From Rhodospirillaceae bacterium (GTDB lineage: Bacteria > Pseudomonadota > Alphaproteobacteria > MPNO01 > UBA2964): a DNA stretch of 64,000 nucleotides. Shown here piece after piece: positions 1 through 61,119 of this stretch; the stretch's first letter is position 1; every line of letters starts with the position of its first letter. Below the pieces are notes generated by a model that had not been told where the DNA came from, searched no databases, and saw only the letters and a program-made list of their open reading frames with translations. The stretch spans positions 89,989-153,988 of the forward strand of contig PAPV01000005.1 in the NCBI GenBank assembly GCA_002709075.1. Direction: 5' to 3'. The position numbers and the translations under genes were made by a program.

Positions 1-443
1 TTTTCTTCATTTGCCTCATCAATGCACAGCATCACGTTTACAAAATTGGTGGCATAATTCTCCCAACCTGCTTGCGAGTCCTGGTGAGGTTTAAAGCCAG
101 AACCACCTGGCATTTTGAAATTGATTTTTTCTTTAAATAAATAGGCAGCTTCACCTAATAACTGTTCAACCATAATTTTCAAAACATTGGTTAAAGTTGC
201 AAACCCGTTGTGGAAAGGAGAAATATATTCTATACGGTTTATAAGTTTTTTATTATCGATTTGGCCGCTCTCATGAAAAACCCAATGTTTTCCCGCCTCT
301 TCGGGTAGTTCTTCAACCTCCATTGCCCATTTATCAATTATCTCAATGTCAGATGAAGAAAAAGCATTATACAATGCACAACATCCGTTAGCATTAAATT
401 CACTAATATGTTGGTGTGTGAGAATAGGTGTGACAATCATCAT
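1..443 (-). CDS. PhyH-family Fe(II)/2-oxoglutarate dioxygenase. The 5' end (ATG at 443-441) is present; the 3' end is cut by the window edge
   Basis: Hand translation of the minus strand gives MMIVTPILTHQHISEFNANGCCALYNAF...FKMPGGSGFKPHQDSQAGWENY. The K-x-PGG...HQD block with the H-x-D iron ligands is the PhyH/phytanoyl-CoA dioxygenase signature. The ORF track does not list it because it runs off the edge. Confidence 0.6.
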   Translation of the reverse strand, partial: MMIVTPILTHQHISEFNANGCCALYNAFSSSDIEIIDKWAMEVEELPEEAGKHWVFHESGQIDNKKLINRIEYISPFHNGFATLTNVLKIMVEQLLGEAAYLFKEKINFKMPGGSGFKPHQDSQAGWENYATNFVNVMLCIDEANEE

Positions 444-1680: not shown

Positions 1681-2823
1681 TTATTTACGATTCAAGTTTT
1701 TCGAATTTAAACCAATTGATGCCAAATAAATAGATATTTCTGAGAGTGCGCGGTCAATATCTGTTTTGTTAATATCGCCAATGCAACCAATTCTGAATGT
1801 TTTTTCCTGTGTGACTGCGCCAGGATAAAGTATTACTCCTTTTTTACGCAACGCCTCGTACATCATTTCAAAATCAAAATTTGGATTTTTTGGAAATCGG
1901 ACAGTTACAATTATTGGTGACTGTTGCATTTTAGATAAGAACAAATTAAAGCCTAATAAGCGTAATCCATCCACAAGCTGGTTACAATTAGCTTGATAAC
2001 GTGTTTCCCTTGCCGAAACACCGCCCTCGTTCTCCAGTTCTACAAGGGCTTGATCGAGTGCGGCTAAGACATGTGTGGGAGGTGTAAACCGCCACTGACC
2101 AGTTTTATCTAAATATTTGGCTTGATCATGCAAATCAAGGCAAAGCGAGTTAGCATTTCCGGCAGTAGTATTTAGGATGTTTGTCTTAATTATTGCATAA
2201 GCAATCCCAGGAACACTTTGCAGACATTTGTTTGACGAAGATATCAGCGCGGTTGCAGGTATTTTCTTGAGATTTATTTTTAAAGCACCAAAACTACTCA
2301 TTGCATCAATGATCATTTCACGTTTAGCATTTCTAACGATTGATGCTATATTCTCTATTGGGTTTAGAATGCCAGATGTGGTTTCACAATGGACTACGGC
2401 GACGTGGGTAATATCTGTGTTGGTTTCAAGTCGGGAGGCAATTTCGCAGGGGTCGGGCTGAATGTCTTCAGGTGTTTTGTACACTTCATATGCTCTGCCG
2501 AGATAATCACAGATTTTAGCCATGCGTTCCCCGTAAACGCCATTAATCAGAATTAAACATTTTCCCATTCTACGTGGCAGCAATGTGCCGAGTGTAGCTT
2601 CAACAGCAAAAGTTCCACTGCCTTGGATTGGAATGCAGTTATAGCCTTCTTCTGCCCCTGCAAGTTTACAAAGTTTCGATCGGACTCTAGCGGTCATCTC
2701 TATGAACGTTTTGTCTCTCGATCCTATATCGCGATTTAATGCCTTCCTAACTGTGACTGACGTTGTCAATGGACCCGGTGTGAGGAGAATTTCTCCACGT
2801 TTTCTCTCTTCGTTAGTTTGCAT
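1681..2823 (-). CDS. phnW: 2-aminoethylphosphonate:pyruvate aminotransferase (class V, PhnW-like AEP transaminase)
   Basis: Strong PhnW-type blocks: LLTPGPLTTS near the N-terminus, IDAMSSFG, SSSNKCLQSVPG (PLP lysine region), WRFTPPTH and IYPGAVTQEKTFRIGCIG. Convergent with ppd, with only 5 bp between the stop codons. Confidence 0.8.
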   Translation of the reverse strand: MQTNEERKRGEILLTPGPLTTSVTVRKALNRDIGSRDKTFIEMTARVRSKLCKLAGAEEGYNCIPIQGSGTFAVEATLGTLLPRRMGKCLILINGVYGERMAKICDYLGRAYEVYKTPEDIQPDPCEIASRLETNTDITHVAVVHCETTSGILNPIENIASIVRNAKREMIIDAMSSFGALKINLKKIPATALISSSNKCLQSVPGIAYAIIKTNILNTTAGNANSLCLDLHDQAKYLDKTGQWRFTPPTHVLAALDQALVELENEGGVSARETRYQANCNQLVDGLRLLGFNLFLSKMQQSPIIVTVRFPKNPNFDFEMMYEALRKKGVILYPGAVTQEKTFRIGCIGDINKTDIDRALSEISIYLASIGLNSKNLNRK

Positions 2824-2993
2824 TCTTCCTTGCCTAACTCGTTCCTATCATGCATGAATTTCTAGTATGCACATGTTGACAACTTTATGCCAAGCATACT
2901 TGTCTTTTGAAAACATGGGAGGAACCAATAAGCCATAATACTTGGATACACCGAATTGTACGGAAGGGGGTAAGACCACTTTTAAAGACATCG

Positions 2994-3539
2994 ATGCATC
3001 CCAATTTTCTTACAACACTTAGATTTCTTACCGGAATGTTTTCCGCTTTCCTATTCTCAATCGACAATTTCTATTGGAGATGGGAAGCAATTTTGATACT
3101 TACAATTTCTTTGTTACTAGATCGTGCAGATGGAGAATTTGCCCGTCAAACCGGCCGCACAAGTAAATTTGGTCATAAATATGACTTGGTTGCTGATGGG
3201 GTTTCTAACGCGGCTTTGTTCGCCGGTATAGGGTACGGAATGCCCTCAAACTCTTTAGGCGGTTATGCGATGGAGGTCGGTATGGCTGCTGGAATTGCAA
3301 TTCTAGGCACAGAATTTCTGGTAATGCGAGCACATGATACTGGAATAAAAAATACTAAGGATATTGGAAATTTTTATGGTTTTGATCCTGATGATGGAAT
3401 GTTTCTCGTCCCTGTGGTGCTTGCATTTCATTGGGAAAATGCATTACTCATAATTACGGTAATCGGAGCTATAATTTCATTGCTAGTTACATTAGTTATG
3501 GTTGTTCGTGGATCCAAAAATTCTGCAGGAAAACTGTGA
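2994..3539 (+). CDS. CDP-alcohol phosphotransferase-family membrane protein (small, ~181 aa; ORF extends to a TTG at 2907)
   Basis: Family motif D-G-x2-A-R-x8-G-x3-D-x3-D is present as DRADGEFARQTGRTSKFGHKYDLVADG. The N-terminal PNFLTTLRF matches the usual TM1 entry of this family. Multiple TM helices. No SD seen for either start, so the start is uncertain. Confidence 0.7.
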   Translation: MHPNFLTTLRFLTGMFSAFLFSIDNFYWRWEAILILTISLLLDRADGEFARQTGRTSKFGHKYDLVADGVSNAALFAGIGYGMPSNSLGGYAMEVGMAAGIAILGTEFLVMRAHDTGIKNTKDIGNFYGFDPDDGMFLVPVVLAFHWENALLIITVIGAIISLLVTLVMVVRGSKNSAGKL

Positions 3540-6155
3540 ATGTGGGAATGTTACTTAGGTAGACTTGCCAATAAGGTTGTGCATCTTTCGGTAAAACATC
3601 ACATAATAATTATTACCTCATATGTTTTGATTGCCGGATACTTATTTTGGTACGGTGCGGTAAACCTAGCAATCAATACAGACAATGCTGATCTTTTGTC
3701 TAGAGATCTTCCTTTCCGCACTCACCACATTGAAATAAAGGAGTCATTTCCACAGCTTTCTAACAATATTATTGTGGTCGTAGATGCGTTGACAACTGAG
3801 CAGGCGGATTATGCAGCTCTAAAACTTTTTAACGCTATTAAAGCAAAAAAAAAGTTATTCCCTGCTGTATTTTATCCTGCAGGAGAGAGATATTTTACTA
3901 AAAATAGCCTTTTATTTCTTGATAAGGTTCAACTCAGACATTTAATGGAACACCTAATAGACCATCAGTTTTTTATTGGTCGATTGGCTGCTGACCCGAG
4001 CCTTCGTGGATTATTCAATATTTTAACTCTTGCCCTTAATCAGGTGAAAAATAGTTTTGAAAAAAATGAATTAATTAGGTTCATGGATATGCTAACCAGA
4101 TCCCTCCAATCAGGACTCGAAAGACCGAAGGCAAGTTTTTCTTGGCAAAATTTTATAGGTCAAGATGCAGTTCAAGATCCAAAAAATCGCAGATTTATTA
4201 TCCTTAAACCAAATCTTGATTATGGTTCCTTACAACCTGCACAAAACTCAATGTCAGAAATCCGGAGGCTAGCCTCAAGTTTGAAACTTACCCCTGCTTT
4301 CGGTATTCGAGTGCGGCTCACTGGGACCGTTCCAATGGAACAAGAGGAGTTAGCCAGTGTGGTTGAAGGCATGGGTGTAGCCGGAGTGACATCATTTGTT
4401 TTGGTGTTAACACTTTTATTTGTGGCGATGCGATCATTTAAAATGGTTATTTCGGCTATATTAACATTAATTGCGGCCCTTGGCTGTACCGTCGGATTTG
4501 CGGCATGGGCTGTAGGCAGTCTGAATTTAATATCCGTTGCATTTATAGTTCTTTTCATAGGGCTGAGCGTAGATTTTGCCATTCATTTTTGTTTGCGAAT
4601 TCGGGAAGAAATAATTGATGGGAAAAGAATGTCAGGTTCGGCACCTAGAGCGGCTAGAAAGATAGCAGGCGCGCTCTGTTTGTGCACCGCTACTGCAATG
4701 ATAGCTTTCTTCAGTTTTTGGCCAACAAATTATGTAGGTCTGGCAGAACTTGGGATTATCTCAGGTGCAGGCATGCTTATTGCTCTAATAGTTAATCTAA
4801 CTTTTTTTCCTGCGCTTCTCAAAATGCTTGGGTTTTTTAATAGGTCAACTTCAATATGCAAAAAACCCATTGTTATAAATGAGGCCTGGCAAGTGAGGCA
4901 CTCCTTCAAGATTTTGATATTTGCTTCAGGCCTAACGATTGGGGCATCACTTCTCGTGGTGGATGTTCGTTTTGATTTTGATCCATTAAATCTAAAAGAT
5001 CCAGAAACTCAGTCGGTTTCAACCATGTTGGATTTAATGAATAAATCTGATTTATCGCTTTACTCTGCGGACATTTTAACCAAAGGGCCAACCGAAGCGA
5101 TAAAATTAACTCAAGAACTGAAAAATTTACCCACCGTCGGTAAAGTAGTAAATGCATTTAGCTTCATTCCTGTAGAGCAATCAGAGAAGCTATCTATAAT
5201 TTCTGAGGCTAAACTTCTTATTTTACCAGCGCTGTATTTGCCGAAGATACCCAAACCGAGTGAAATAGAAACTCGTAAGTCAATTGCTCAATTTCTTGAT
5301 TCGGCTACAAAAATGGATCATCAAAAACAACCCAAAATTGCATTTGCAGCTAAAAGTCTGATTAAAAGCATGCAACATTACAACCTAGAAAATCTGAAGG
5401 AATATAAACAACTAGAAGAAAATTTATTGGGTAATTTACCGAACTCAATAGAAAAACTAAAGGAGATGCTTTCCGCCTCCAGCGTTGTATTTGATGACGT
5501 GCCAATTAGTATCCGTCAACGTTTTGTTGATAAAGATAATCGCTGGCGGGTGGAGGTACATGCGGCAAAAAAAACAAGAGATCCAGATAATTTAATAACA
5601 TTCGTAGATGAACTGAAATCAGTGGCGCCGACGGTAACTGGGTCGCCTGTAATTATAGTTGAAGCAAGTCGCGTCGTTGTTCAGGCATTTTTGGTGGCGG
5701 CTGTCATATCCATCGGGGCAATTTCAATCTTGTTGCTCATACTGTTGAGAAGAATTGACGATGTGCTTTTGACATTTGTTCCTTTGGTATTGGCTACTTT
5801 ATTGACTGGCGCAGCAAGCGTTTTGCTTGATATGCCATTCAATTTTGCTAACATAATCGTATTGCCACTAATATTTGGTTTAGGGGTTTCCAGTATGGTG
5901 CACTTGATCATGCGGTCTGATGATTTTAGCATTCCAACCGCAATTTTTTTAACTTCAACCCCACGAGCAGTAAAATTTAGCGCTCTTACTACAATCGGAT
6001 CCTTCTCCACTATCGCACTCTCGAGTCATCCAGGAACCTCTAGCATGGGGGTGCTACTTGCCGTTTCCATCGGCTTCACTTTGGCTTCTTCTTTGATTTT
6101 GCTTCCGGCACTACTAGTATTGAGAAAGAACTTCATAATTAGTCGTGAAAATTAA
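3540..6155 (+). CDS. MMPL/RND-superfamily lipid exporter (HpnN-like, 871 aa)
   Basis: The architecture is TM1, a large periplasmic domain, a 5-TM bundle (GVAGVTSFVLVLTLLFVAMRSFKM...LSVDFAIHF, SSD-like), a second periplasmic domain and a second TM bundle. Size and layout match MMPL and HpnN-type transporters. Confidence 0.75.
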   Translation: MWECYLGRLANKVVHLSVKHHIIIITSYVLIAGYLFWYGAVNLAINTDNADLLSRDLPFRTHHIEIKESFPQLSNNIIVVVDALTTEQADYAALKLFNAIKAKKKLFPAVFYPAGERYFTKNSLLFLDKVQLRHLMEHLIDHQFFIGRLAADPSLRGLFNILTLALNQVKNSFEKNELIRFMDMLTRSLQSGLERPKASFSWQNFIGQDAVQDPKNRRFIILKPNLDYGSLQPAQNSMSEIRRLASSLKLTPAFGIRVRLTGTVPMEQEELASVVEGMGVAGVTSFVLVLTLLFVAMRSFKMVISAILTLIAALGCTVGFAAWAVGSLNLISVAFIVLFIGLSVDFAIHFCLRIREEIIDGKRMSGSAPRAARKIAGALCLCTATAMIAFFSFWPTNYVGLAELGIISGAGMLIALIVNLTFFPALLKMLGFFNRSTSICKKPIVINEAWQVRHSFKILIFASGLTIGASLLVVDVRFDFDPLNLKDPETQSVSTMLDLMNKSDLSLYSADILTKGPTEAIKLTQELKNLPTVGKVVNAFSFIPVEQSEKLSIISEAKLLILPALYLPKIPKPSEIETRKSIAQFLDSATKMDHQKQPKIAFAAKSLIKSMQHYNLENLKEYKQLEENLLGNLPNSIEKLKEMLSASSVVFDDVPISIRQRFVDKDNRWRVEVHAAKKTRDPDNLITFVDELKSVAPTVTGSPVIIVEASRVVVQAFLVAAVISIGAISILLLILLRRIDDVLLTFVPLVLATLLTGAASVLLDMPFNFANIIVLPLIFGLGVSSMVHLIMRSDDFSIPTAIFLTSTPRAVKFSALTTIGSFSTIALSSHPGTSSMGVLLAVSIGFTLASSLILLPALLVLRKNFIISREN

Positions 6156-7144
6156 TGTTTGCGATACGTGTTTTATGTTTGCTGATTGGAGTCGTCCTCT
6201 TAGCCATCATAATTGTTTCAACTGATATATATGCAGCCATAAAATTGATCCAGGGAATGGGATGGGGAATTTTGTTGGTAACGGTAGCTTATAGCGTAAT
6301 CTCATTTGGTGATACGCTATCTTTTCACGTGTTAACCCATAAGATACCCATGACCATAAGAAATTTTTACGAGCTGTGGAAAATAAGGTTAGTCGGTGAG
6401 GCCTATAATCAAGTATTGCCTCTCGGGGGTCTGGGAGGTGAGCCAATAAAAGCGGTTCTCTTAAAGCAGTCAACGGAAATGGATTTGGAAGAAATCACAG
6501 CCTCACTTTTCGCTGCAAAAACGGTAAACATCGTAACCCTAATTATCTTTTTGGCAGTTGGATTTCTTCTGATGGGTTGGGAAAAGAGAATTTCTCCAGA
6601 ATTTTTTCGGGCAGCTGGATTAGGATTAGCGGTTTTGAGTCTGGGTATACTGGGTTTCTTTCTTATTCAACGAATGGGTTTGTTGTCCGTTCTTTTCAGT
6701 AGACTGTTACATCGACTGAAAGGACGCTTTTTAAATGTAATTGCAATAATTTCAAACATTGAACACCGATTATACGAATGTTACCGCTATCGAAAATATC
6801 GTTTCCTAGCTTCGCTTTTTGTCGCTCTTATTGTTTGGGTTGTAAGCATAGTTGAAGTGTATTTAGTACTTTATTTTTTAGGGTATCCAATTAGTTGGAC
6901 AGAGGCATGGATTATAGAATCCGGAGCTCAATTAGTGAAAGCAGGCACCTTTTTTATTCCAGGAAGTATAGGAGCCTTTGATGGAGCATTTTTATTGCTG
7001 TGTGGAATGATTACTGGTTCGCCGGTGGTGGGTGCAGCCGTTGCGGTTGTAAGGAGGCTTCGCGAAATTTCATGGACTGCCTTTGGATTTGCTATCGGGA
7101 TATTCAGGCTGAAAAAATATGAACAAGGAAAGAAAAAATATTAA
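6155..7144 (+). CDS. Flippase-like / UPF0104 (LPG_synthase_TM) integral membrane protein, HpnL-like
   Basis: About eight predicted TM helices, 329 aa, with a conserved RLVGEAYNQVLPLGGLGGEP segment typical of the flippase-like domain. Its ATG overlaps the stop of the MMPL gene (TAATG), which suggests translational coupling. Confidence 0.6.
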   Translation: MFAIRVLCLLIGVVLLAIIIVSTDIYAAIKLIQGMGWGILLVTVAYSVISFGDTLSFHVLTHKIPMTIRNFYELWKIRLVGEAYNQVLPLGGLGGEPIKAVLLKQSTEMDLEEITASLFAAKTVNIVTLIIFLAVGFLLMGWEKRISPEFFRAAGLGLAVLSLGILGFFLIQRMGLLSVLFSRLLHRLKGRFLNVIAIISNIEHRLYECYRYRKYRFLASLFVALIVWVVSIVEVYLVLYFLGYPISWTEAWIIESGAQLVKAGTFFIPGSIGAFDGAFLLLCGMITGSPVVGAAVAVVRRLREISWTAFGFAIGIFRLKKYEQGKKKY

Positions 7145-7146
7145 AG

Positions 7147-7770
7147 TTAATTGGCAGCAAGAAGCCGTCTAGTTTTGGAATTTAAAACGATGGTTAATGC
7201 TTTTGTCCCCCCGGTTGTTAGAATTTTTCTGTATTCAGACCGTCTAGTTGCTAGCTCACTAATGCCACCCGCTAAAATTATATCTATCACACGCCAGACA
7301 CCATTGGTCTCTAGAAGAACGTATGCAATTTGAATTGGCTTGCTGCGTTTGTTGACTATTTGAGTGGTTATAACACGCGATCCACTCGGTCCAAGAGTGT
7401 TAGATAAAGTAATAAATTTTTGACCAGAAAAACTATTAAAACGCAACGCGTAGTTGGCAGCACTATAATTACGAAAAGCCTCAACTAGGTTCTTTTGTTC
7501 AATTAACTTTGCTTTACGCCAATGGTTACCACTAATAAGTTTAACCATCCCCTTTAAGTCAAAAACTTCTTGAACTAGCTCTCTTAGATTTTTATAGCGT
7601 CCTTGCAGCCCCAGATTATTTGCTGTCTTCATTGTATGCAATAAGTTCAAGTGAAATTTTTTTATTTGTAATACGGGTCTGTTCTCGGCGCGTGCGCCCG
7701 CAGACAATACGACCAAAATTATTAATAAAAATTGGAACAAACGTTTTTGTTTTCTATAAATTTGCTTCAT
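7147..7770 (-). CDS. MlaC/Ttg2D-family periplasmic phospholipid-binding protein (HpnM-like). The track ORF extends to 7818
   Basis: Signal peptide (FQFLLIILVVLSAGARA) followed by a ~190-aa soluble domain with the Ttg2D/MlaC pattern (NLRELVQEVFDLKGMVKLISGNHW...). The start at MKQIYRK is preferred over the upstream MFYKL. Confidence 0.6.
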   Translation of the reverse strand: MKQIYRKQKRLFQFLLIILVVLSAGARAENRPVLQIKKFHLNLLHTMKTANNLGLQGRYKNLRELVQEVFDLKGMVKLISGNHWRKAKLIEQKNLVEAFRNYSAANYALRFNSFSGQKFITLSNTLGPSGSRVITTQIVNKRSKPIQIAYVLLETNGVWRVIDIILAGGISELATRRSEYRKILTTGGTKALTIVLNSKTRRLLAAN

Positions 7771-8007
7771 GGTTAATTTGAGTGGCCCTTTGTTGTAATA
7801 TGTTAACTTGTAAAACATTTTTTACCTTATAAACGCAACCTGTAGAAAACTTAATGACAGATGGTGAATCTACTCTATTATCCTAAGGGAATAAGTGATT
7901 TAATCGGTAACGGATGAAACAGTTAGATATTTGTATTTGAGTGCCAGGTTTATTGATGATGATTCTAAATGAATAGTTATACTAAAAAAGTGAGTTAATT
8001 CTTTCAG

Positions 8008-8844
8008 ATGTTGAGTATGGATTTTATTCTAAGAGCCTTCATTCGATCGTGGAAATTGGTAGCAGTATCTATATTCTGTTTGTCAGTTTCCACATCATTT
8101 GCAACAGCATCGAAAATTTACACCACAACAGAGGTTGTTGCTCCCTATAAAATTGACTCTATAGATACAAATGACCCACTTGAGAGTGTAAATAGGGTAG
8201 TTTTTCATTTTAATGATATTATCTACTCATTTGTATTACGCCCTTTAAGTAAGGTTTACGACAAAATACTACCTGACTTTGTTCAGGCAGGCGTCCATAA
8301 CGCTCTGAACAATTTGAATTCACCAGTAATTTTAGCGAACGATCTATTACAAGGTGAATTTGGACGAGCTAAGATCACAATACAACGTGCCGTTATAAAC
8401 ACAACGGTGGGCGTAGGCGGTTTGTATGATGCAGCTTCTAAAATTTGGAAAATACCCATGCACAAAGAAGATTTTGGGCAAACATTCGCAGTTTGGGGTG
8501 TTCAAGAAGGTTTTTATTTAGTGTTACCAATCTTTGGTGCTTCAAATCCGCGTGACGCAACGGGACTAATTGTCAACATGTATGCAGATCCATTTTCTCA
8601 CTATCTAAGAAACATTGGCGAAAATGATGCTGCCATTGCGCGCACCGCGGTTGCAGGTTTAGACAAATTTTCTGAGGTAACGGATGATTTGGAAAAATTA
8701 AAGAAAACTTCGGTTGACTATTATGCAGCAGTTCGCAGTATTTACAGACAAAAGCGCGCGGTTGAAATAAAAAACAGGTCGCACAGAAAAGGCGTATCTA
8801 TTCCAGATTTACATTATGACTTAAATGCTGAGTTACTAAATTGA
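8008..8844 (+). CDS. mlaA: MlaA/VacJ-family outer-membrane lipoprotein
   Basis: Signal sequence, then the characteristic NDPLESVNRVVFHFND...DKILPDFVQ...NLNSPVILANDLLQG blocks of VacJ/MlaA. Confidence 0.8.
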   Translation: MLSMDFILRAFIRSWKLVAVSIFCLSVSTSFATASKIYTTTEVVAPYKIDSIDTNDPLESVNRVVFHFNDIIYSFVLRPLSKVYDKILPDFVQAGVHNALNNLNSPVILANDLLQGEFGRAKITIQRAVINTTVGVGGLYDAASKIWKIPMHKEDFGQTFAVWGVQEGFYLVLPIFGASNPRDATGLIVNMYADPFSHYLRNIGENDAAIARTAVAGLDKFSEVTDDLEKLKKTSVDYYAAVRSIYRQKRAVEIKNRSHRKGVSIPDLHYDLNAELLN

Positions 8845-8946
8845 AAGTACAGACTCAACTGATATTATCGGATAGCAACTTGAATTCTATTGCTGAATAA
8901 CAAAATAATAAATAATAAATAATCTGGCCACATTGATAGGATTAAA

Positions 8947-9798
8947 ATGTTCATACAAACCGAAGGTTTATCGCTGGAAAACCAACTAAGATTTGACCCC
9001 GGTAGGGAAGTACTGCCTGGAAAACCAATAAAACTGGAAAATCCATCAGAGGCTAAAAAGTATCCGTTAGCTGAAAGGCTGCTTCTTTTATCTCATGTAC
9101 GAGCCGTTACTTTGGAAAACAGATCGTTGGTTGTGGAGAGGTCTGATGAAATAGAATGGGTTCAGCTAAAGCCAGCAATTCTCGGTGCTATTATGGACCA
9201 TTTTGTAGCCGGACTACCTGTTTATCATGATGAGGAGCTAAGTACTGATCATGAGCTTGGCGAAGATGACCAGGTGTTTTTGTTGGATCAAAGTGACCCT
9301 ATAGTTGGCGAGCTAACTGAATTAATTGCGACGCGGGTTAAACCAGCTGCTACGCAGAGTGGTGGTGATGTTATTCTTATGGGCTACAGTGACGGAGTTG
9401 TTTATCTCAAATTTGAGGGTCAAAGTTTTCAGCTAGCTAGCGGAATAGAAAATATGTTGCGACACTATATTCCGGAGGTTAAAAATGTAGCCGATTACCG
9501 TGATGCTTTTCCGAAGCCTGGGTTGGATACCCCGGAAGCGCGAGCTATAAAGAGCGTGCTCGAAACACGTATTAACCCCGCGGTCTCAGGCCACGGTGGT
9601 CACATCAGTTTGATAGATGTGGATGGAAATAGTGCCTACATTCGGATGGAGGGCGGTTGTCAAGGTTGCGGCATGGCTAATGCTACTCTCAAAGAAGGTG
9701 TCGAGGTGGAAATTAAAAAAGCTGTTCCTACAATTGAGAGAGTTTTGGACGTCACTGAACATGCAGACGGCACAAATCCTTATTACCAGCAAGGGTAA
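8947..9798 (+). CDS. NifU/Nfu-type iron-sulfur cluster scaffold protein (Nfu_N plus NifU C-terminal domain with CxxC)
   Basis: The C-terminal domain has the GGCQGCGMA motif and the VDGNSAYIRMEGGC pattern. The N-terminal Nfu-like domain has the LKFEGQ motif. Confidence 0.7.
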   Translation: MFIQTEGLSLENQLRFDPGREVLPGKPIKLENPSEAKKYPLAERLLLLSHVRAVTLENRSLVVERSDEIEWVQLKPAILGAIMDHFVAGLPVYHDEELSTDHELGEDDQVFLLDQSDPIVGELTELIATRVKPAATQSGGDVILMGYSDGVVYLKFEGQSFQLASGIENMLRHYIPEVKNVADYRDAFPKPGLDTPEARAIKSVLETRINPAVSGHGGHISLIDVDGNSAYIRMEGGCQGCGMANATLKEGVEVEIKKAVPTIERVLDVTEHADGTNPYYQQG

Positions 9799-9846: not shown

Positions 9847-11097
9847 TCAGGCAGCAGTATTTTCTTTTTGCTCCGATAGAATCCGTGAAACAGGTTTATC
9901 GTCGATTGGTAAATGCAGTAACGATGCCACTATCCCGGCACTGATAATCAACCACCAGGCATAGTCATAAGATCCAGTATGATATTTTATTATACCACCC
10001 AACCATACTGATGTGAAGCTTCCAACCTGATGGCTGAGAAATACTAATCCGTAAAGAGTTGCAAGATAGCGCGGTCCAAATACTTCTGCCACGATACCTG
10101 AGGTTAAAGGTACCGTTGCCAACCATAAAATACCAACCGAACAGGCGAATAAAATAACACTTAATTCAGTTTTTGGGAGAATAAAGAATACAAGAAAAAC
10201 TGTTGATCGAGCCGAATAAATAAATGCAAGCAAATACTTCTTTCTTAAAAATCCGCCAAGAAACCCGGAAGCTTGAGTACCAAGCATGTTAAAAAATCCT
10301 ATGAAGGCAATAGCGGTTGCTGCCATAGCGCCACCAACGGCTGTGGCATTTAAATAATTTTCTAAGTGGTTATTTATGAATTGAACTTGAAATCCACAAA
10401 CAAAGAAAGCGACAGTCAACAACCAAAAGCCACGATGACCTGCCGCTTCTTTTATAGCATCTCCGAGACTTTGACTGTCCTTTTTGGATAAAATGCCTTT
10501 GGCAGCACTTGCCATAGTCAGTGCAAATGGAACGACCAGTAAAGCCATAGTGCCAAGAACAATGGTTGCGTATACCCAACCTTTATAAGAAATTAGATAA
10601 TGTGTTAGGGGAACTATTAGCATCTGGCCTGCTGTACCTCCCGAAACAACAATACCAAGCCAAAAAGTCCGCCATTTTTCCGGAGCGACGCGGCCAACAA
10701 TTGATAATAACATTGGAAGTGCAATACCGGCTGACCCAAGTCCGATGAAGATTCCGACATTAAGCACCAATCCGAATTCAGATGTCGATTGTGACATCAT
10801 GAACAACCCAAAAGAGTAAAGCAAGCCGGATAGAATTAAAACACGAATTGGGCCCCAACGATCGGCGGCCGCACCCAGAAAGGGCGCGGCACAGCCATAA
10901 ATTAATAACTGGAGGCCGGTTGCGAAAGACATCACTCTTACATCGGTCCCCCAACCAAGGGCTTCGGAGACTGGGCGTAAAAACATTCCCATGCTTTGTC
11001 GACCACCATAGGCAAATAGAATGATACTTATCGCGCAAATCAACACGATGAATGGGTTATGCCAAATCGTTGACTTAATTATTTCTGCCCTCCACAC
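9847..11097 (-). CDS. MFS transporter (paralog 1 of 3 in tandem)
   Basis: Twelve predicted TM segments. The N-terminal block YGGRQSMGMFLRPVSEALGW and the LPMLLSIVGRVAPEKWR motif are shared with the next gene. Confidence 0.75.
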   Translation of the reverse strand: MWRAEIIKSTIWHNPFIVLICAISIILFAYGGRQSMGMFLRPVSEALGWGTDVRVMSFATGLQLLIYGCAAPFLGAAADRWGPIRVLILSGLLYSFGLFMMSQSTSEFGLVLNVGIFIGLGSAGIALPMLLSIVGRVAPEKWRTFWLGIVVSGGTAGQMLIVPLTHYLISYKGWVYATIVLGTMALLVVPFALTMASAAKGILSKKDSQSLGDAIKEAAGHRGFWLLTVAFFVCGFQVQFINNHLENYLNATAVGGAMAATAIAFIGFFNMLGTQASGFLGGFLRKKYLLAFIYSARSTVFLVFFILPKTELSVILFACSVGILWLATVPLTSGIVAEVFGPRYLATLYGLVFLSHQVGSFTSVWLGGIIKYHTGSYDYAWWLIISAGIVASLLHLPIDDKPVSRILSEQKENTAA

Positions 11098-11116
11098 ATT
11101 CTCACAAAATCAACAA

Positions 11117-12340
11117 TCACGCTGTTTGCGCAAGTCTTTCCACTGGAGTTTCCTTAATAGGCAGGTGAAAAAGGGCAGCAAGTGCGCCTCCCAGTATGAT
11201 AACCCACCACCAGATTTCATAGGAGCCAGTTGAGTCACGAACTACACCACCCATCCAAGTACTAAATGCTCCACCAATTTGATGACTAAGGAAAGCTATT
11301 GCGTATAGCGTTGCCATATAACGCGGTCCAAAAAGAGTGGATATGATACCTGCTGTGAGAGGGACTGTAGCTAGCCATAATACACCTATACATGAAGCAA
11401 AAATGTACACTGAAGTTTGGCTAATAGGCGCTAGAAAAAACGCAAGCATTACCAGTGAACGACCTACGTAGAGAAATACAAGAAGATTTTTTTTTCGAAA
11501 ATGTCCGCCCAGTTTACCCGCGAGCGCTGTACCAATCATGTTCGAAAATCCAATTAATGCTATGGCATGTGCGCCTATTGTTACACCGGTTCCTGTATCT
11601 TCAAGAAATTTGGGAAGGTGGGTAACAATAAATTGCACTTGGAAACCACAAGTAAAAAATCCTAGGCAGAGATACCAATAACTACGCGCTTCCCTTGCCT
11701 CTGAGAGGGCTTGCCCCAAAGTTTGCGTGTCTTTTTTTTGATCCAGGGCGTTTCCACTGGCTTTTCCAACAATTATTGCCATGGGAACAATTGCAAAAAT
11801 AAATGACGCTAAAATAATAACGGCATCAGTCCAGTCCATTCGTGTTAGTAAAAATCCATTAAGTGGAACAAGAAACATTTGTCCGCCTGTTCCGCCGGCG
11901 GATACAATCCCAAGCCATAGACTGCGTTTTTTTTCTGGTGCAACTCTTCCAACCACTGATAGAAGCATTGGTAGCCCGCAACCTGATGCTGCTAGTCCGC
12001 TAAGAACACCAATGCTAAGAGCGAGATGTAGTTCAGATACGGCATTGCTTAATTGGTACATCCCAAATGCATAGAGTGCACCCCCAATAATAAGCATCTT
12101 GATCGGCCCAAGCCATTTATCTGCAATCATGGAAACAAAGGGAACACTTATTCCGATAATCAGGGTTTGAAGACTGACGGCAAAAGAAAATGGTTCAACT
12201 CTTCCACCGCTGATAGAATCACTTATTGGAACGAGAAAAATGCCAAAACTTTGACGGGTCCCGTATGAAATTAATATGATAAGTGTGCATAGTAAAAGCA
12301 CAATGTATGGACTCTTCCACAAGGTGTTTGTTTCTGACAT
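11117..12340 (-). CDS. MFS transporter (paralog 2 of 3)
   Basis: Closely similar to paralog 1 (LPMLLSVVGRVAPEKKRSLWLGIV, HLPI...P tail). Confidence 0.75.
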   Translation of the reverse strand: MSETNTLWKSPYIVLLLCTLIILISYGTRQSFGIFLVPISDSISGGRVEPFSFAVSLQTLIIGISVPFVSMIADKWLGPIKMLIIGGALYAFGMYQLSNAVSELHLALSIGVLSGLAASGCGLPMLLSVVGRVAPEKKRSLWLGIVSAGGTGGQMFLVPLNGFLLTRMDWTDAVIILASFIFAIVPMAIIVGKASGNALDQKKDTQTLGQALSEAREARSYWYLCLGFFTCGFQVQFIVTHLPKFLEDTGTGVTIGAHAIALIGFSNMIGTALAGKLGGHFRKKNLLVFLYVGRSLVMLAFFLAPISQTSVYIFASCIGVLWLATVPLTAGIISTLFGPRYMATLYAIAFLSHQIGGAFSTWMGGVVRDSTGSYEIWWWVIILGGALAALFHLPIKETPVERLAQTA

Positions 12341-12359
12341 ATTTACTAGTTTCAGTTAA

Positions 12360-13595
12360 TCAACCAATCTTAGTTTGAAGCATCACTTTCCGAGTAACAG
12401 GCTTTTCATCAATTGGCCAGTGAATAAAAACTGCAACAAAACCCAGTCCAACCGCTGTCCACCAAACCGGATCGTAGGATCCTCCCCACCCACGTACAAT
12501 ACCACCAAAAGTGATGCCCACAAAACTTCCTAATTGATGGCTTAAGAATACAAATCCGTAAAGGGTTGCTAAATATTGTGTCCCGAAAATTTGAGCTACA
12601 AGCCCACTCGTTAGGGGAATTGTCCCAAGCCAGGTCAAACCCATCAAAGCAGAAAATATGATTGTGCTAACATCGGTTATAGGCATTAGCACATATACAA
12701 CGATACATAAGGACCTCATCATATACAATCCTGCAAGTAAGTATTTTTTACTATATCTGCCCCCTAAAGCACCCCAAACAAAGCTTCCTAGAATGTTAAA
12801 GAGACCAATTAAGGCAAGTGACCAAGCCGCTATCTCCGCAGATATACCAATATCCTTAAGATACAGAGGTAAGTGACTGGCAATAAAAAGTGTTTGGAAA
12901 CCACATACGAAGAAACCCAGAACTAGTAACAAATACCCACGATGATGAAGGGATTCAAAAATTGCTTCGGTCACACTTTGTCGTCGATCGAATTGGTCAT
13001 TTGAAATTATTGGCTTTCCCGCAATGGGTATTATGAGAGGTATTATAATCAGCATTATACACGATAATATTATCAGTGAACTAGCATATCCACTATCGAT
13101 CATAAAATAATGGGCAAATGGTACTACAATTACCTGCCCGCTAGAGCCACCAGCGCTGGCAATTCCCAAAAACAGACTGCGGCGCTTGAGGTGAATGCTG
13201 CGTCCAATTACTGATAGTATAATCGGGAACCCAGTAGCACTCATGGCAAGGCCAGTGAGAACACCCGTACTAACGTGTATTTCAATCTCAGTTGTTGAGG
13301 TGGCCATTAGGTATAGACCAAGAGCATATAACGCTGCACCAGCACTAATTACTCTGCCAGCACCGTATCTGTCTGCTACCACGCCCCATAGTGGTTGTGA
13401 TAGGCCCCAAACAAGAACCTGTAATCCCATTGAGAATGAAAACACAGAAATATTCCAACCATTCGATTCAGAAATTGGGCCTAAAAAAAGACCATATGTT
13501 TGGCGAATTCCAAAAGAGCTTAATAATATTAATGTGCCACAGATGAGAATTAGAGAGGGTGTTTTCCAACCAATTTTCTGTTCCCCAAAATCCAT
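12360..13595 (-). CDS. MFS transporter (paralog 3 of 3, more diverged)
   Basis: Same topology and conserved blocks (FGIRQTYGLFLGPISE, ILSVIGR...KRRSLFLGIASAGG) as paralogs 1 and 2. Confidence 0.75.
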   Translation of the reverse strand: MDFGEQKIGWKTPSLILICGTLILLSSFGIRQTYGLFLGPISESNGWNISVFSFSMGLQVLVWGLSQPLWGVVADRYGAGRVISAGAALYALGLYLMATSTTEIEIHVSTGVLTGLAMSATGFPIILSVIGRSIHLKRRSLFLGIASAGGSSGQVIVVPFAHYFMIDSGYASSLIILSCIMLIIIPLIIPIAGKPIISNDQFDRRQSVTEAIFESLHHRGYLLLVLGFFVCGFQTLFIASHLPLYLKDIGISAEIAAWSLALIGLFNILGSFVWGALGGRYSKKYLLAGLYMMRSLCIVVYVLMPITDVSTIIFSALMGLTWLGTIPLTSGLVAQIFGTQYLATLYGFVFLSHQLGSFVGITFGGIVRGWGGSYDPVWWTAVGLGFVAVFIHWPIDEKPVTRKVMLQTKIG

Positions 13596-36877: not shown

Positions 36878-37987
36878 TTACGACTTTGAACTGCGTCTCT
36901 CTGCCAACAAGTATGCGAGCCTTTTAATTTCAAGACGGCTACGTCCGAGACTATCTAGTAACACACCACAAATGAAGGAAGTGTATGCCAGAATGATTAT
37001 GCCGGTGGACAATATGGCAGTTGGAAATCTCCTAACCAGTCCTGTTTCAATAAATTCTACAAAAACAGGGTAACTGAGAAATATTGATATGAAAACAAGG
37101 AGTGTTGCAAGGGCAGAGAAAAATAAAAATGGTCGTGCATCTTTGAATAAAAGTAAAATTGTCCACAAGATACGGAGACCATCCTTCCATGTACTAAGTT
37201 TACTTGCTGATCCATCTGGACGAGCTGAGTACTTTGTTTTGACCTCCAAAATTGGTAGTTGGAGATAGAGTGAATGAAACGTCAATTCGGTCTCTATCTC
37301 GAAACCTTTGCTTAATGCAGGAAAACTTTTAACAAATTTTCTTGAAAAAACTCGATATCCAGATAGCATATCTTTTAATTGGCGGCCAAAAATTACTCCG
37401 GCGAACCATGTAAGGATCTTATTTCCGAATTGATGCCCAGTTCGGTATTGACCATCTTCTGATGAATGAGACCGTGCTCCAACAACCATATCAAGATCTC
37501 TATCGCACAATGTTTTTATCAAAATTGGAGCTATTGTGGCATCATAGGTGCCGTCTCCATCAGCCATAACGAAAATATCTGCCTCTACATCAGCAAACAT
37601 TCTCCGAACAACATTTCCTTTGCCCTGCATTGGTTCATAACGAACAGTTGCTCCCGCTTTTGCAGCAGCGCACCCGGTGCCGTCAGTCGAATTGTTATCG
37701 TACACGTATATTTTTGCATCTGGCAACGCAAATTTAAATTGGTTTATAACATCTACGATTGTTACAACCTCATTGTGACACGGAAGTATTACGGCTGTTT
37801 TTAGCTGCACTTTGTTAATCCTTTCCTCTTGAGGATATTTTTTTCTTAAATAAATAAGGAAACCTATTTGATAAATAAAAAAGCAATGCAATAGCTTTGG
37901 AGCATGAAATACTAATCGGTTCGAAAAACATTTTAGAGAAATAAATAAATTTTGAATGGAAAAATATTTTTGCTGTAGCGTTAACAT
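36878..37987 (-). CDS. GT2 polyprenyl-phosphate glycosyltransferase (GtrB/ArnC-like) with C-terminal TM helices. The N-terminus is probably over-extended
   Basis: VILPCHNE...YVYDNNSTDGT...DGDGTYD GT-A motifs (DxD-like) and two C-terminal hydrophobic helices. Confidence 0.7.
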   Translation of the reverse strand: MLTLQQKYFSIQNLFISLKCFSNRLVFHAPKLLHCFFIYQIGFLIYLRKKYPQEERINKVQLKTAVILPCHNEVVTIVDVINQFKFALPDAKIYVYDNNSTDGTGCAAAKAGATVRYEPMQGKGNVVRRMFADVEADIFVMADGDGTYDATIAPILIKTLCDRDLDMVVGARSHSSEDGQYRTGHQFGNKILTWFAGVIFGRQLKDMLSGYRVFSRKFVKSFPALSKGFEIETELTFHSLYLQLPILEVKTKYSARPDGSASKLSTWKDGLRILWTILLLFKDARPFLFFSALATLLVFISIFLSYPVFVEFIETGLVRRFPTAILSTGIIILAYTSFICGVLLDSLGRSRLEIKRLAYLLAERRSSKS

Positions 37988-44034: not shown

Positions 44035-44595
44035 ATGTTTTCCATCAATCTTCCGAATGTAATTTCTTTGGCAAGACTTTTCAGTGTTCCAATATTAGTT
44101 TGGCTTATTTTGAACGGACAGTTTCTTTGGGCTTTATGGCTATTTGTTGGTGCAGGTATCTCAGATGCCCTCGACGGATATATCGCCAAAAAATGGTCGC
44201 AAACTTCAACCCTTGGAACTTTCCTTGATCCTGTAGCTGACAAAGCATTGCTCGTTGGAGTATATTCAACGCTTGGTTTTATTGGAGAAATACCTCTTTG
44301 GATTGTGATCTTAGTGGTATTTCGTGATGCATTAATTATTGGTGGTGTGATTATGCTGCATATATCAATGGCGAGTGTGAAGATGCGCCCTATACTAATA
44401 AGTAAGGCTAACACTGCTTTTCAGATTTCTTTAGCAGTCTGGATACTTGGAGAGTTAGGATATGGCCTCGTGTTTTCAGGAATTAAATTTGGATTAATTT
44501 ATTTGGTTGCACTCTCAACCGTGCTGTCTGGAGGGGCGTATATAATGAGTCTGTTCGGTAGTGAAATGAATAAATCCGATGGTGGAGTTAAATAA
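44035..44595 (+). CDS. pgsA: CDP-diacylglycerol--glycerol-3-phosphate 3-phosphatidyltransferase
   Basis: DALDGYIAKKWSQTSTLGTFLDPVADK is the CDP-alcohol phosphatidyltransferase motif. 186 aa with an NLPN start. Confidence 0.85.
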   Translation: MFSINLPNVISLARLFSVPILVWLILNGQFLWALWLFVGAGISDALDGYIAKKWSQTSTLGTFLDPVADKALLVGVYSTLGFIGEIPLWIVILVVFRDALIIGGVIMLHISMASVKMRPILISKANTAFQISLAVWILGELGYGLVFSGIKFGLIYLVALSTVLSGGAYIMSLFGSEMNKSDGGVK

Positions 44596-59025: not shown

Positions 59026-59316
59026 ATGTTAGTTGACAAATCTACAGTGCTTCATATTGCGAATTTAGCTAAGATAGAAGTTCCGGATGGAGATCTCGAA
59101 AATCTAGCGTCAGAATTGTCCCACATTCTTGGTTGGGTTGAACAACTTAATGAAGTTAATACCGATGATGTTATTCCCATGTGCTCGGGCGTGGCGAGCA
59201 TGCAACTTCGACTTCGTCAGGATAAAATTTCTGAAGAAAACCAACAAAGCGACGTGCTCTCAAACGCACCAGATTCGCGTGATGGTTTCTTTGCAGTTCC
59301 TAAGGTTTTAGAGTAG
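59026..59316 (+). CDS. gatC: Glu/Asp-tRNA amidotransferase subunit C. It is hidden in the last 97 codons of the spurious 282-aa track ORF 58468..59316
   Basis: [41 protein letters not shown] is canonical GatC, immediately upstream of gatA. Confidence 0.85.
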
Positions 59317-60795: not shown

Positions 60796-61119
60796 GTGCG
60801 ATTTCATTTCTGGTACGTTTTAATTCATGTGGGTCTTGGGCTTGTAGGTTTTGAATTTTTTTTATTTTCAAATACAGGAGGTGTACTTGCATTTGGATCG
60901 GCGCTAATAGTTCAAAGTTATGCAGTTTTTGAAATTCATCGAGCGGCATGGCAGCGGTTCAAAATTGTTCAAGATACAGAGAATAGCTTGCAAAGACGTA
61001 ATAAAATGTTCGCGAACTATAAAAATCGATTGCTGCGAGTTTGGTTTATGCGAAGTTGTCTTTACGCGTTATTAACGCTGATTTCCGCAATGGCAGTTCG
61101 AGGAGATGGATTGGGGTGA
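60796..61119 (+). CDS. Small 2-TM hypothetical protein between gatA and gatB (GTG start, no SD)
   Basis: Open frame whose stop overlaps the gatB GTG start (GTGA). Two hydrophobic segments. No recognised family. Confidence 0.3.
   Translation: MRFHFWYVLIHVGLGLVGFEFFLFSNTGGVLAFGSALIVQSYAVFEIHRAAWQRFKIVQDTENSLQRRNKMFANYKNRLLRVWFMRSCLYALLTLISAMAVRGDGLG

Follow-up and report, generated by a model that had tools for sequence, protein, structure and literature searches.

The genes hpnN, hpnM and an intervening gene for a PF03706 membrane protein, found near the start of the 64-kb stretch of DNA analysed here (the window), very probably constitute the transport arm of a cluster for making and exporting hopanoids, in the metagenome-assembled genome (MAG) of a marine Rhodospirillaceae bacterium; this reading draws on family assignments, synteny, tight gene junctions and recurrence in other genomes. 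The initial annotation had described the three genes as a module without hopanoid genes, an apparent absence that is an artefact of the window edge. Their embedding among phosphonate genes is no accident: the two modules are interleaved in many genomes, so that a lipid carrying a phosphonate may be among what is transported. It is this phosphonate head-group module inside the hopanoid clusters of many bacteria that sets the locus apart, a phosphonate-terpene linkage having previously been remarked on only in passing.

Hopanoid biosynthetic genes adjoin the window

The parent Tara Oceans contig of the window is 158 kb long. On it, hpnD, shc, an hpnG-like gene, hpnH and hpnA form one cluster about 1-7 kb 5' of window position 1. 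In profile searches of this parent contig, HpnD (305 bits, cutoff 279), SHC (TIGR01507, 764 against 431), HpnH (549 against 225) and HpnA (471 against 368) all exceed their cutoffs, and the hpnG-like product scores under its HpnG cutoff. The gene order is hpnD, shc, hpnG-like, hpnH (minus strand), hpnA, a pntC-like cytidylyltransferase gene, phyH (minus), ppd, aepT (minus), a CDP-alcohol phosphotransferase gene, hpnN, the PF03706 gene, hpnM (minus), an mlaA-like gene and nfuA; the window starts within phyH. The initial annotation had reasoned that shc and hpn genes elsewhere in the genome, with these three as its only HpnLMN homologues, would imply a plain hopanoid role; the shc and hpn genes lie closer than that, on the same contig and in the same cluster. 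ENA, JGI, Logan and NCBI provide independent assemblies with the same cluster junctions, so that a chimeric parent contig is unlikely.

The transport proteins

HpnN (RND/MMPL), HpnL (PF03706) and HpnM (PF05494) are known to co-occur in hopanoid clusters. Here hpnN (3540-6155, plus strand) encodes an RND/MMPL inner-membrane lipid exporter of the HpnN family, correctly recognised from the start as an 871-aa MMPL protein (PF03176, 114 bits); it exceeds the HpnN cutoff (TIGR03480, 871.2 against 751.85) and stays below that of the stricter equivalog NF052374 (693 against 1100). It aligns over its full length with the structures of Burkholderia multivorans HpnN (6wu0/5khn; 432 bits), its residues D345, T817/T818 and L52 matching D344, T818 and L48. 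The stop codon of the CDP-alcohol phosphotransferase gene abuts the hpnN start codon (TGA-ATG at 3537-3542), a junction overlooked by the initial annotation, and at its other end hpnN overlaps the PF03706 gene in the TAATG that had been reported (6153-6157).

The PF03706 gene (6155-7144, plus strand) encodes an MprF-flippase-like membrane protein of 329 aa, which clears the Pfam threshold (96 against 33.4) and misses the HpnL cutoff (TIGR03476, 159.4 against 195.65). The description 'HpnL-like' thus holds for the family and fails for HpnL itself: an alignment of PF03706 proteins resolves two subfamilies, and the window protein belongs to the HpnL-like 'type A' sister subfamily. At sequence level, no solved structure matches the protein; its flippase activity is predicted from the domain it has in common with MprF and AglD, from both of which it differs in lacking a fused synthase or glycosyltransferase domain. 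In MprF, this domain translocates a lipid with a modified head group.

Convergent with the PF03706 gene, their stop codons 2 bp apart, is the gene earlier assigned to the Ttg2D/MlaC family (7147-7818, minus strand; 223 aa; PF05494, 112 bits). It encodes HpnM, a periplasmic MlaC-fold lipid carrier (TIGR03481, 167.6 against 160.1); the likely true start at 7770 yields the signal peptide MKQIYRKQKRLFQFLLIILVVLSAGARA, followed by ENRP. The AF2 model (pLDDT 91.3) finds its best PDB matches in MlaC (7vr6/2qgu/5uwa, TM 0.77-0.82). The next gene (8008-8844, plus strand), passed over initially, encodes an MlaA/VacJ-family protein (PF04333, 223.4 against 25) that scores only 95.9 against a cutoff of 375 for the E. 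coli-type MlaA equivalog NF011672; it is equivalent to 'HpnS', a proposed outer-membrane acceptor (Lawrence et al., 2025).

By family, HpnN would act as a proton-driven RND/MMPL pump taking hopanoids from the inner membrane, HpnM, with its MlaC fold and Sec signal peptide, would ferry them through the periplasm, and the MlaA-like protein would receive them at the outer membrane. Work by Doughty in 2011 and by Kumar in 2017 is said to have placed HpnN in hopanoid trafficking. That the MMPL protein extracts the lipid and the MlaC-like protein carries it, as suggested before, is reasonable and not new: an HpnN-HpnM-HpnS pathway has been proposed for Rhodospirillales, named as having co-occurring HpnM and HpnS, and for other proteobacteria (Lawrence et al., 2025, preprint, PMC12324291). 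The window agrees with that proposal in taxon, in having the three families near shc and hpnH, and in the full-length match of its HpnN to the solved B. multivorans protein; it differs in that hpnN is flanked without intergenic spacing by the phosphotransferase and a sub-threshold HpnL relative, and in the interleaved phosphonate pathway (the terms phosphonate and CDP-alcohol have 0 occurrences in PMC12324291).

Two further systems are comparable in outline. The E. coli Mla system (MlaFEDB-MlaC-MlaA) likewise pairs a periplasmic MlaC-fold carrier with an MlaA-family outer-membrane partner, but its inner-membrane component is the MlaFEDB ABC complex rather than an RND/MMPL pump; no mlaD, mlaE or mlaF gene is found among the annotated window ORFs, and the MlaC and MlaA equivalog scores fall far under their cutoffs. 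The sterol transporter BstABC of Methylococcus capsulatus, whose cargo is also a polycyclic triterpenoid (PMC10942540), combines an inner-membrane RND protein with lipid-binding partners in the periplasm and at the outer membrane; these have BstB and BstC folds instead of MlaC- and MlaA-like ones, and the window HpnN matches BstA only weakly (NF045600, 152 bits against 1400).

The phosphonate module

The earlier placement of the three genes in a phosphonate locus is borne out by a phosphonopyruvate decarboxylase and a transaminase above their TIGRFAM cutoffs and by a CDP-alcohol phosphotransferase identified through PF01066. Within the window, the module begins with the 5' part (1-440, minus strand; about 146 codons, ATG at 438-440) of a gene for a PhnY*-like PhyH-family 2-oxoglutarate/Fe(II) dioxygenase, which is cut by the window start and complete on the parent contig (L002, 9150-9905; PF05721); it scores 142 bits against a cutoff of 500 for the methylphosphonate hydroxylase NF052437. 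It continues with the decarboxylase (Ppd/AepY; 536-1675, plus; TIGR03297, 424.2 against 312.5), 379 aa long in the gene calls of 15 public contigs, and the 2-aminoethylphosphonate:pyruvate transaminase (AEPT/PhnW type; 1681-2823, minus; NF010006, 486 against 296; TIGR02326, 462 against 400.8; TIGR03301, 458 against 360.8). The phosphotransferase (2994-3539, plus; PF01066, 57.6 against 22) is a membrane enzyme with the complete motif DRADGEFARx8Gx3Dx3D, and this hpn-linked paralogue shares just 24% identity with the PgsA-like one at 44035-44595. Counting against the overall reading, neither the 64-kb window nor the 9.5 kb preceding it yielded a pepM, and none was located elsewhere in this MAG. 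Three MFS transporter genes lie downstream.

These genes correspond to the 'Burkholderiales_CDP-OH' or Group 1 phosphonolipid cluster (Li & Horsman, 2022, PMC8942020; Yu et al., 2013, as cited), with which they share Ppd, the transaminase, a 2-oxoglutarate oxygenase, a PntC-type cytidylyltransferase, the CDP-alcohol phosphotransferase and a PF03706 protein. Unlike that cluster, the window lacks a Ppm (PepM-PntC fusion) gene, and hpnN interrupts the module, which is set among hpn genes; the PF03706 protein of the window is of type A, whereas those of four Burkholderiales genera (27-29% identical to it) resemble true HpnL, judged by identity only. A catabolic role, in which seawater 2-aminoethylphosphonate (AEP) is degraded with no tie to lipid synthesis, would fit the PhnW-type transaminase, the resemblance of the PhyH protein to PhnY-type hydroxylases and the MFS genes; it is nevertheless highly improbable, as Ppd is a biosynthetic enzyme, phnX, phnZ, phnA and C-P lyase genes are all absent from the cluster, the cytidylyltransferase and CDP-alcohol phosphotransferase are conserved partners, and many relatives carry pepM in-cluster.

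Recurrence and cargo

Among 80 species-representative loci, whose counts lack phylogenetic independence because they were retrieved via the phosphotransferase and are mostly Rhodospirillales MAGs, hpnN occurs in 36 and shc/hpnG/hpnH in 24; pepM/ppd/aepT are found in 37, of which 26 have hopanoid genes as well. Within the 36 hpnN loci, the phosphotransferase gene lies immediately 5' of hpnN in 27, PF03706 and hpnM are each present in 30, and an mlaA-like gene follows hpnM in 25. The complete gene order is kept in diverged relatives (phosphotransferase identities of 45% in L008, 63% in L011 and 44% in L017). The modules are merged on plasmid p1318-3 of Roseomonas marmotae and adjacent, within about 11 kb, on pBRH01 of Mycetohabitans rhizoxinica, both cultured and RefSeq-annotated; in PLSDB, 14 of 15 phosphotransferase-bearing replicons carry an HpnN homologue, with only 29 HpnN-positive among 72,556 records.

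The initial annotation suggested a more general lipid shuttle, which would be independent of hopanoids and, on the narrowest reading, would here serve a phosphonate lipid only. The head-to-tail junctions of the phosphotransferase, hpnN and PF03706 genes, the occurrence of type-A PF03706 proteins in phosphonate-only clusters as well, and the NF052374 score of HpnN would agree with this, but it is very improbable: shc, hpnH, hpnG-like, hpnA and hpnD share the cluster both here and in diverged relatives, and HpnN and HpnM pass hopanoid-specific cutoffs. As the genes lie within a bona fide hopanoid cluster, they provide no evidence for such a shuttle. Phosphonate-only clusters (L010, L035, L042 and B. 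multivorans) moreover have no adjacent MMPL or MlaC gene; the transporter thus travels with the hopanoid, not the phosphonate, genes.

For the hopanoid export arm, this leaves the relation of the two pathways to be weighed. They may be co-located yet chemically separate, the phosphonolipid being based on diacylglycerol or ceramide, HpnN, HpnM and the MlaA-like protein moving hopanoids only, and adjacency reflecting joint control of envelope lipids (in response to phosphate or osmotic stress, for instance) without a shared product; we consider this a serious contender, at somewhat under even chances. Eukaryotic phosphonolipids derive from CMP-AEP and diacylglycerol, and the seven-gene phosphonate/CDP-OH core, PF03706 included, is found by itself in B. 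multivorans, Cupriavidus, L010 and L042, where hopanoid genes are absent within 10-20 kb. The core has been assigned to the Group 1 phosphonolipid clusters (PMC8942020), and the literature that could be searched yielded no hopanoid containing phosphorus. Against separation, the modules are interleaved rather than just adjacent (pntC and phyH between hpnA and hpnN, PF03706 after hpnN), the phosphotransferase has its recurrent place directly 5' of hpnN, the two modules are linked in varying gene orders across Alpha-, Beta- and Gammaproteobacteria, and the Group 1 product, for all its prevalence, has never been detected in the form of a conventional phosphonolipid (PMC8942020). A phosphonate-decorated hopanoid is accordingly possible, and attachment of the head group to a hopanoid is offered tentatively, as the less probable outcome.

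The phosphonate genes represent the conserved Group 1 core merged into an hpn cluster. Ppd and the transaminase would produce AEP, probably hydroxylated at C1 by the dioxygenase; the cytidylyltransferase would form a CMP-phosphonate, and the CDP-alcohol phosphotransferase would attach the phosphonyl head group, on the cytoplasmic side, to a lipid alcohol of the membrane, for which the bacteriohopanetetrol side chain and diacylglycerol are candidates. The PF03706 protein would flip the phosphonyl-lipid, enabling pick-up by HpnN. Among solved structures, AF2299 and IPCT/DIPPS come closest to the phosphotransferase, at weak scores (E about 2e-3 in the PDB comparison; 43-47 bits where the cutoff is 580) and with substrates that certainly differ; both the phosphotransferase and the cytidylyltransferase encoded upstream have the two halves of bifunctional IPCT/DIPPS among their best NCBIfam matches, which fits a split pair for CTP activation and subsequent transfer to an alcohol.

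The transport genes form the distal part of a hopanoid cluster

An exact-sequence look-up places the window within a Tara Oceans contig of 158 kb; independent assemblies of the region exist in ENA, JGI, Logan and NCBI. Immediately before window position 1, the contig carries hpnD (TIGRFAM score 304.8, above the cutoff of 278.6), the squalene-hopene cyclase gene shc (763.7, above 431.1), a gene for an HpnG-like phosphorylase (sub-threshold at 164.2, below 187.1), hpnH (549.2, above 225) and hpnA (471, above 368), followed after hpnA by an NTP_transf_3 cytidylyltransferase and then by a PhyH-family dioxygenase, which is cut by the window start. The five hopanoid genes lie 4-10 kb upstream of hpnN; of the squalene synthesis set HpnC/HpnD/HpnE, HpnD alone is seen within the 9.5 kb upstream, with a hydantoinase gene further upstream. 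Because hpnD, shc, the hpnG-like gene, hpnH and hpnA lie just beyond the window start, the trio is the distal part of a hopanoid cluster, and not a module without hopanoid genes, as the initial annotation had proposed; hpn genes elsewhere in the genome were to have counted against that proposal, and here they are adjacent. Very probably, the three genes serve as the export arm of this hopanoid cluster, into which a phosphonate head-group module is integrated.

The three open reading frames are as first called, with profile scores confirming their MMPL, PF03706 and MlaC-family identities. The 871-residue MMPL protein encoded by hpnN (3540-6155, plus strand) scores 114 bits on PF03176 and 871.2 on the HpnN model TIGR03480 (cutoff 751.85); the 329-residue product of the next gene (6155-7144, plus strand) scores 96 bits on PF03706 (cutoff 33.4) and 159.4 on the HpnL model TIGR03476, below its cutoff of 195.65; and hpnM (7147-7818, minus strand) scores 112 bits on PF05494 and 167.6 on TIGR03481 (cutoff 160.1). 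Family assignment at the profile level thus stands for HpnN and HpnM and fails for HpnL. Two further features had been overlooked: a MlaA/VacJ-family ('HpnS') gene at 8008-8844 (PF04333, 223.4 bits, cutoff 25), and the junction of hpnN with the CDP-alcohol phosphotransferase gene at 2994-3539 (PF01066, 57.6, cutoff 22), whose TGA stop immediately precedes the ATG of hpnN. Since hpnN in turn overlaps the PF03706 gene in the sequence TAATG (6153-6157), these three genes form one head-to-tail unit; the stop codons of the PF03706 gene and the convergent hpnM are separated by 2 bases. A promoter and terminator scan of 2700-9000 yielded counts not above those of shuffled sequence.

Two subfamilies of PF03706 proteins

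The description of the PF03706 protein as HpnL-like holds for its domain and for its position, directly after hpnN in most related loci, and does not extend to family membership: as it scores 159.4 against a cutoff of 195.65, while true HpnL proteins (from the retrieved loci L030, Skermanella aerolata; L087, Sphingomonas sp.; L068 and L033) score 251-303 bits, it is by profile comparison a member of a sister subfamily. This subfamily, here called type A, comprises the window protein and those of L008, L010, L021, L035, L046 and L059, all sub-cutoff on the HpnL model at 146-165 bits (154-165 for the window-protein orthologues in L008, L021 and L046), and its genes occur either after hpnN or within phosphonate-only clusters. 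Type B, found in Skermanella, Sphingomonas, L068, L033, L018 and L061, scores 225-303 bits and thus represents true HpnL.

The phosphotransferase neighbours both subfamilies. The bona fide HpnL proteins of L030 and L087 (294-303 bits) are encoded inside the phosphonate/CDP-alcohol module and not among the hopanoid genes, and that of L068 next to the phosphotransferase; the arrangement in the former two hints that HpnL works with this enzyme. The PF03706 genes of Roseomonas marmotae (L091) and of three Burkholderiales genera (Mycetohabitans, Burkholderia and Cupriavidus; L092-L094) likewise lie inside the phosphonate module; their products are type-B-like by identity alone (27-29% to the window protein). 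A general rule that HpnL always belongs to the CDP-alcohol module was rejected: when metagenome contigs were scanned with HpnL as the starting point, no more than 13 of the 80 loci had a phosphotransferase in the vicinity. Most long loci of a large soil clade of HpnL-like genes are without any hopanoid or phosphonate reference gene. In the two inspected, the HpnL-like gene lies beside an ABC-2 ATPase and permease, a DUF6268 protein and a SCP2 sterol-transfer-family protein (L112, 6160-10999), or beside an ABC-2 permease, the permease alone having been scanned, and a DUF6268 protein (L135, 6424-10999); this neighbourhood may represent another lipid-trafficking set. A sequence search of the window PF03706 protein against the PDB gave no match; by analogy with the flippase domain of MprF, it would flip a lipid.

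Recurrence of the merged arrangement

In L008, a homologue of the phosphotransferase (45% identity) occurs in an identical 15-gene order. For a wider survey, an alignment of homologous phosphotransferases served as the query against one genome per GTDB species; annotation of the 80 loci returned used blastp, the queries being the proteins of this cluster and a PepM reference. Among these 80 loci, which were selected through the phosphotransferase and are phylogenetically clustered, 36 carry hpnN; in these 36 the phosphotransferase lies directly upstream in 27, and PF03706 is found in 30, hpnM in 30, the mlaA-like gene in 25, phyH in 28 and the cytidylyltransferase in 26. At least one of shc, hpnG and hpnH is present in 24 of the 80, and at least one of pepM, ppd and aepT in 37; hopanoid genes accompany these in 26 loci, and 8 of the remaining 11 are on contigs shorter than 15 kb. 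Where at least 19 kb is available (n=37), both modules are present in 15 loci, the hopanoid module only in 9, the phosphonate module only in 2 and neither in 11. The typical order is hpnD-shc-hpnG-hpnH-hpnA-pntC-phyH-[pepM::pntC]-ppd-aepT-CDPOH(1-3 copies)-hpnN-PF03706-hpnM(1-3 copies)-mlaA; many related loci (L015, L021, L034, L082 and others) have tandem paralogues around hpnN, with 2-3 copies of hpnM and 2-3 phosphotransferases, as against single copies in the window lineage.

The arrangement is carried by Rhodospirillales, Thalassospiraceae, Kiloniellales, a Hyphomicrobiales MAG and some Gammaproteobacteria, with Skermanella aerolata and Sphingomonas sp. PP-CE-1G-424 among cultured strains. 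In RefSeq-annotated replicons, the two modules are merged on the Roseomonas marmotae plasmid p1318-3 and adjacent, within ~11 kb, on Mycetohabitans rhizoxinica pBRH01. Of the 15 PLSDB replicons that encode the phosphotransferase, 14 also have an HpnN homologue, as compared with 29 HpnN-positive records among all 72,556, the matches spanning four genera only; on Burkholderia chromids (NZ_CP143551.1, NZ_CP091013.1 and others), the phosphonate cluster, of the Group 1 type described below, and hpnN share one replicon at a distance of ~1 Mb or more, as against ~11 kb at most in Mycetohabitans and Roseomonas. Judged by gene order, the phosphonate module in the hpn cluster is a conserved insert and not an accident.

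The phosphotransferase and its phosphonate neighbours

The hpn-linked phosphotransferase has the catalytic motif Dx2DGx2ARx8Gx3Dx3D (DRADGEFARQTGRTSKFGHKYDLVAD), whose residues are invariant across a 30-sequence alignment. Among solved structures, AF2299 and IPCT/DIPPS are the closest to it, and the best match of the adjacent cytidylyltransferase is the other half of IPCT/DIPPS; the two fit a pair in which CTP activation would precede transfer to an alcohol. A role as the housekeeping PgsA was considered and rejected, since a separate PgsA/ClsA-like CDP-alcohol phosphotransferase with only 24% identity is encoded at 44035-44595 (plus strand; Pfam 105 bits; TIGR00560 86, below 109), which is probably the housekeeping phospholipid enzyme.

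The phosphonate neighbours include Ppd (TIGR03297, 424 against a cutoff of 312.5) and a 2-aminoethylphosphonate (AEP) transaminase (TIGR02326, 462 against 400.8). That these genes serve to break phosphonates down is very improbable: Ppd, the cytidylyltransferase and the phosphotransferase act in biosynthesis, and the cluster lacks phnX, phnZ and C-P lyase genes. The set matches the seven-gene core of the Group 1 or 'Burkholderiales_CDP-OH' clusters, which consists of a Ppm-PntC fusion, Ppd, AEPT, a 2-oxoglutarate oxygenase, a second PntC and two 'phospholipid' genes, and whose product was never characterised (Li & Horsman, PMC8942020). In the annotated Mycetohabitans cluster, the two 'phospholipid' genes are a CDP-alcohol phosphotransferase and a PF03706 protein. 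Ppd, AEPT, the 2-oxoglutarate oxygenase, PntC, the CDP-alcohol transferase and the PF03706 gene are all six found here, whereas Ppm (PEP mutase, usually fused to PntC) is absent from the cluster. A six-frame scan for the EDKx5NS motif found no PEP mutase in the window or in the retrieved locus L001, and a blastp search using a PepM reference likewise gave none for L001-L008 or for the window extended upstream (64 kb plus positions 1-9465 of L002, the preceding stretch of the parent contig); a relative's PepM used as protein query gave 7,107 matches, none identifiable as belonging to this MAG.

Ppd and the AEP transaminase are nonetheless intact in the window, although no PEP mutase gene was found there. 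pepM lies within the cluster in L016, L021, L030, L032, L034, L050, L087, L091 and L093. Conversely, L015, L046, L057, L064 and L073 keep hpnA, pntC, phyH, the CDP-alcohol transferase and hpnN but lack pepM, ppd and aepT over a distance of 10 kb; L073 has ~1.5 kb of unannotated sequence between pntC and phyH and is missing ppd and aepT, two genes that its close relative L017 has after phyH. Several relatives without local ppd and aepT retain pntC, phyH and the phosphotransferase; on this comparison, the genes for the phosphonate precursor are evidently dispensable in cis and separable from the transfer genes.

The transport arm

The HpnN protein aligns to the solved HpnN of Burkholderia multivorans (6wu0) with 432 bits, residues 12-859 on 8-860; it is below the cutoff of the stricter equivalog NF052374 (692.7 against 1100). 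D344 (the aspartate of TM4), T818 and L48 of 6wu0 correspond to D345, T817-818 and L52 of the window protein, and L826 to I825; these are residues that Kumar et al. reportedly found to be functionally important in HpnN in 2017. By alignment, the protein thus belongs to the HpnN family, with the TM4 aspartate and the other positions conserved as listed. HpnM passes its model narrowly, with 181.8 for its L008 orthologue; an AF2 model built from a 13-sequence alignment (pLDDT 91.3) finds as its best PDB matches in Foldseek the lipid-bound MlaC structures 7vr6, 2qgu and 5uwa (TM 0.77-0.82, E down to 3e-11). The model predicts an MlaC fold, and a plausible Sec signal peptide ending ARA/E, read by eye, would target the protein to the periplasm. 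The MlaA-like gene adjoins hpnM and hpnN; the N-terminus of its product (...AVSIFCLSVSTSFATAS) has a cysteine without the canonical L-[AS]-[GA]-C box. Unlike in the Mla ABC system, where MlaFEDB genes lie next to mlaC and mlaA, no MlaD, MlaE or MlaF family is found among the annotated ORFs from window position 1 to ~59.3 kb, a scan that leaves aside the last ~4.7 kb with the ORFs at 59316-60791, 61041-62564 and 62646-63938.

The trio in itself is ordinary, as an HpnN/HpnM/MlaA-like export set has already been proposed for Rhodospirillales: in a 2025 preprint by Lawrence et al. (PMC12324291), in which the function of HpnL is listed as unknown, HpnN hands hopanoids to HpnM and HpnM to the MlaA-like 'HpnS'. 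The mechanism first suggested for the trio, with the MMPL protein extracting a lipid and the MlaC-like protein carrying it, matches this published hypothesis for hopanoids and is not a new general shuttle. A shuttle independent of hopanoids, proposed from the occurrence of the trio in a phosphonate locus, is improbable: because phosphonate-only clusters lack a neighbouring MMPL or MlaC gene, the transporter is seen to follow the hopanoid genes.

The acceptor of the head group

Granted an export arm of a hopanoid cluster with an integrated head-group module, the lipid onto which the head group goes has two candidates. In the first, the hpn-linked phosphotransferase would move AEP or its 1-hydroxy form from the CMP-phosphonate to the polyol side chain of bacteriohopanetetrol; the phosphono-hopanoid so formed would be flipped by the PF03706 protein and brought to the outer membrane by HpnN, HpnM and the MlaA-like protein. 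The interleaving of the modules, the coupling of the phosphotransferase to hpnN and the recurrence in different gene orders across three proteobacterial classes argue for this, as does the fact that Group 1 clusters have yet to yield a conventional phosphonolipid; we nevertheless regard a hopanoid acceptor as tentative and, on balance, rather unlikely. The second candidate is a separate diacylglycerol phosphonolipid, to which we give a little less than an even chance; in its favour are the phosphonate modules that stand alone in B. multivorans, Cupriavidus, L010 and L042, and the absence of phosphorus-containing hopanoids from the searchable literature.

The linkage of phosphonate and hopanoid genes has been noticed in the literature only in passing, as 'phosphonate-terpene' antiSMASH calls in Nitrosococcus (PMC7285500), a 'possible phosphonoterpene' (PMC8942020) and an 'undiscovered terpene-phosphonate' in Acetobacteraceae (PMC8776678); nothing in the searchable literature analyses how widespread it is, its coupling to hpnN or the split among PF03706 proteins. 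Merged genes for phosphonate synthesis and for hopanoid synthesis and export occur in many Alpha-, Beta- and Gammaproteobacteria, cultured strains included, which makes the question of the acceptor directly testable. Skermanella aerolata, whose merged cluster is L030, gave no Rohmer degradation products though LC-MS showed hopanoids, which its authors left unexplained (PMC12583986); we take this as a lead and not as evidence.

Were the product of the two modules shared, it would be the one so far missing for the most abundant class among bacterial phosphonate clusters: the Group 1 phosphonolipids in Burkholderiales, Acetobacteraceae, Rhodospirillales and other taxa would be phosphono-hopanoids, a lipid class never reported. 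This would add a phosphorus-containing member to the bacteriohopanepolyols, which serve as geochemical biomarkers, would tie marine phosphonate production to membrane lipids, and would give HpnL-type PF03706 proteins a function in flipping lipids with modified head groups, and perhaps HpnA one as well.

Flanking genes

The remainder of the window holds alphaproteobacterial housekeeping genes. Directly 3' of the mlaA-like gene lies a gene for an Nfu_N+NifU Fe-S scaffold (8947-9798, plus strand); an Nfu-type gene follows the mlaA-like gene also in L008, L011, L017, L027 and L073, a conserved synteny with no obvious link, though HpnH belongs to the radical-SAM Fe-S enzymes. Past the end of the cluster are three tandem MFS genes (9847-13595, minus strand), SfMCT- or oxalate-formate-antiporter-like and far below the family cutoffs, and an equivalent trio lies downstream of the cluster in the diverged relative L008. 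At 36878-37987 (minus strand), a family-2 glycosyltransferase resembling archaeal AglJ and polyprenyl-phosphate hexose transferases (TIGR04182, 198, below 325) adjoins lptF/lptG.
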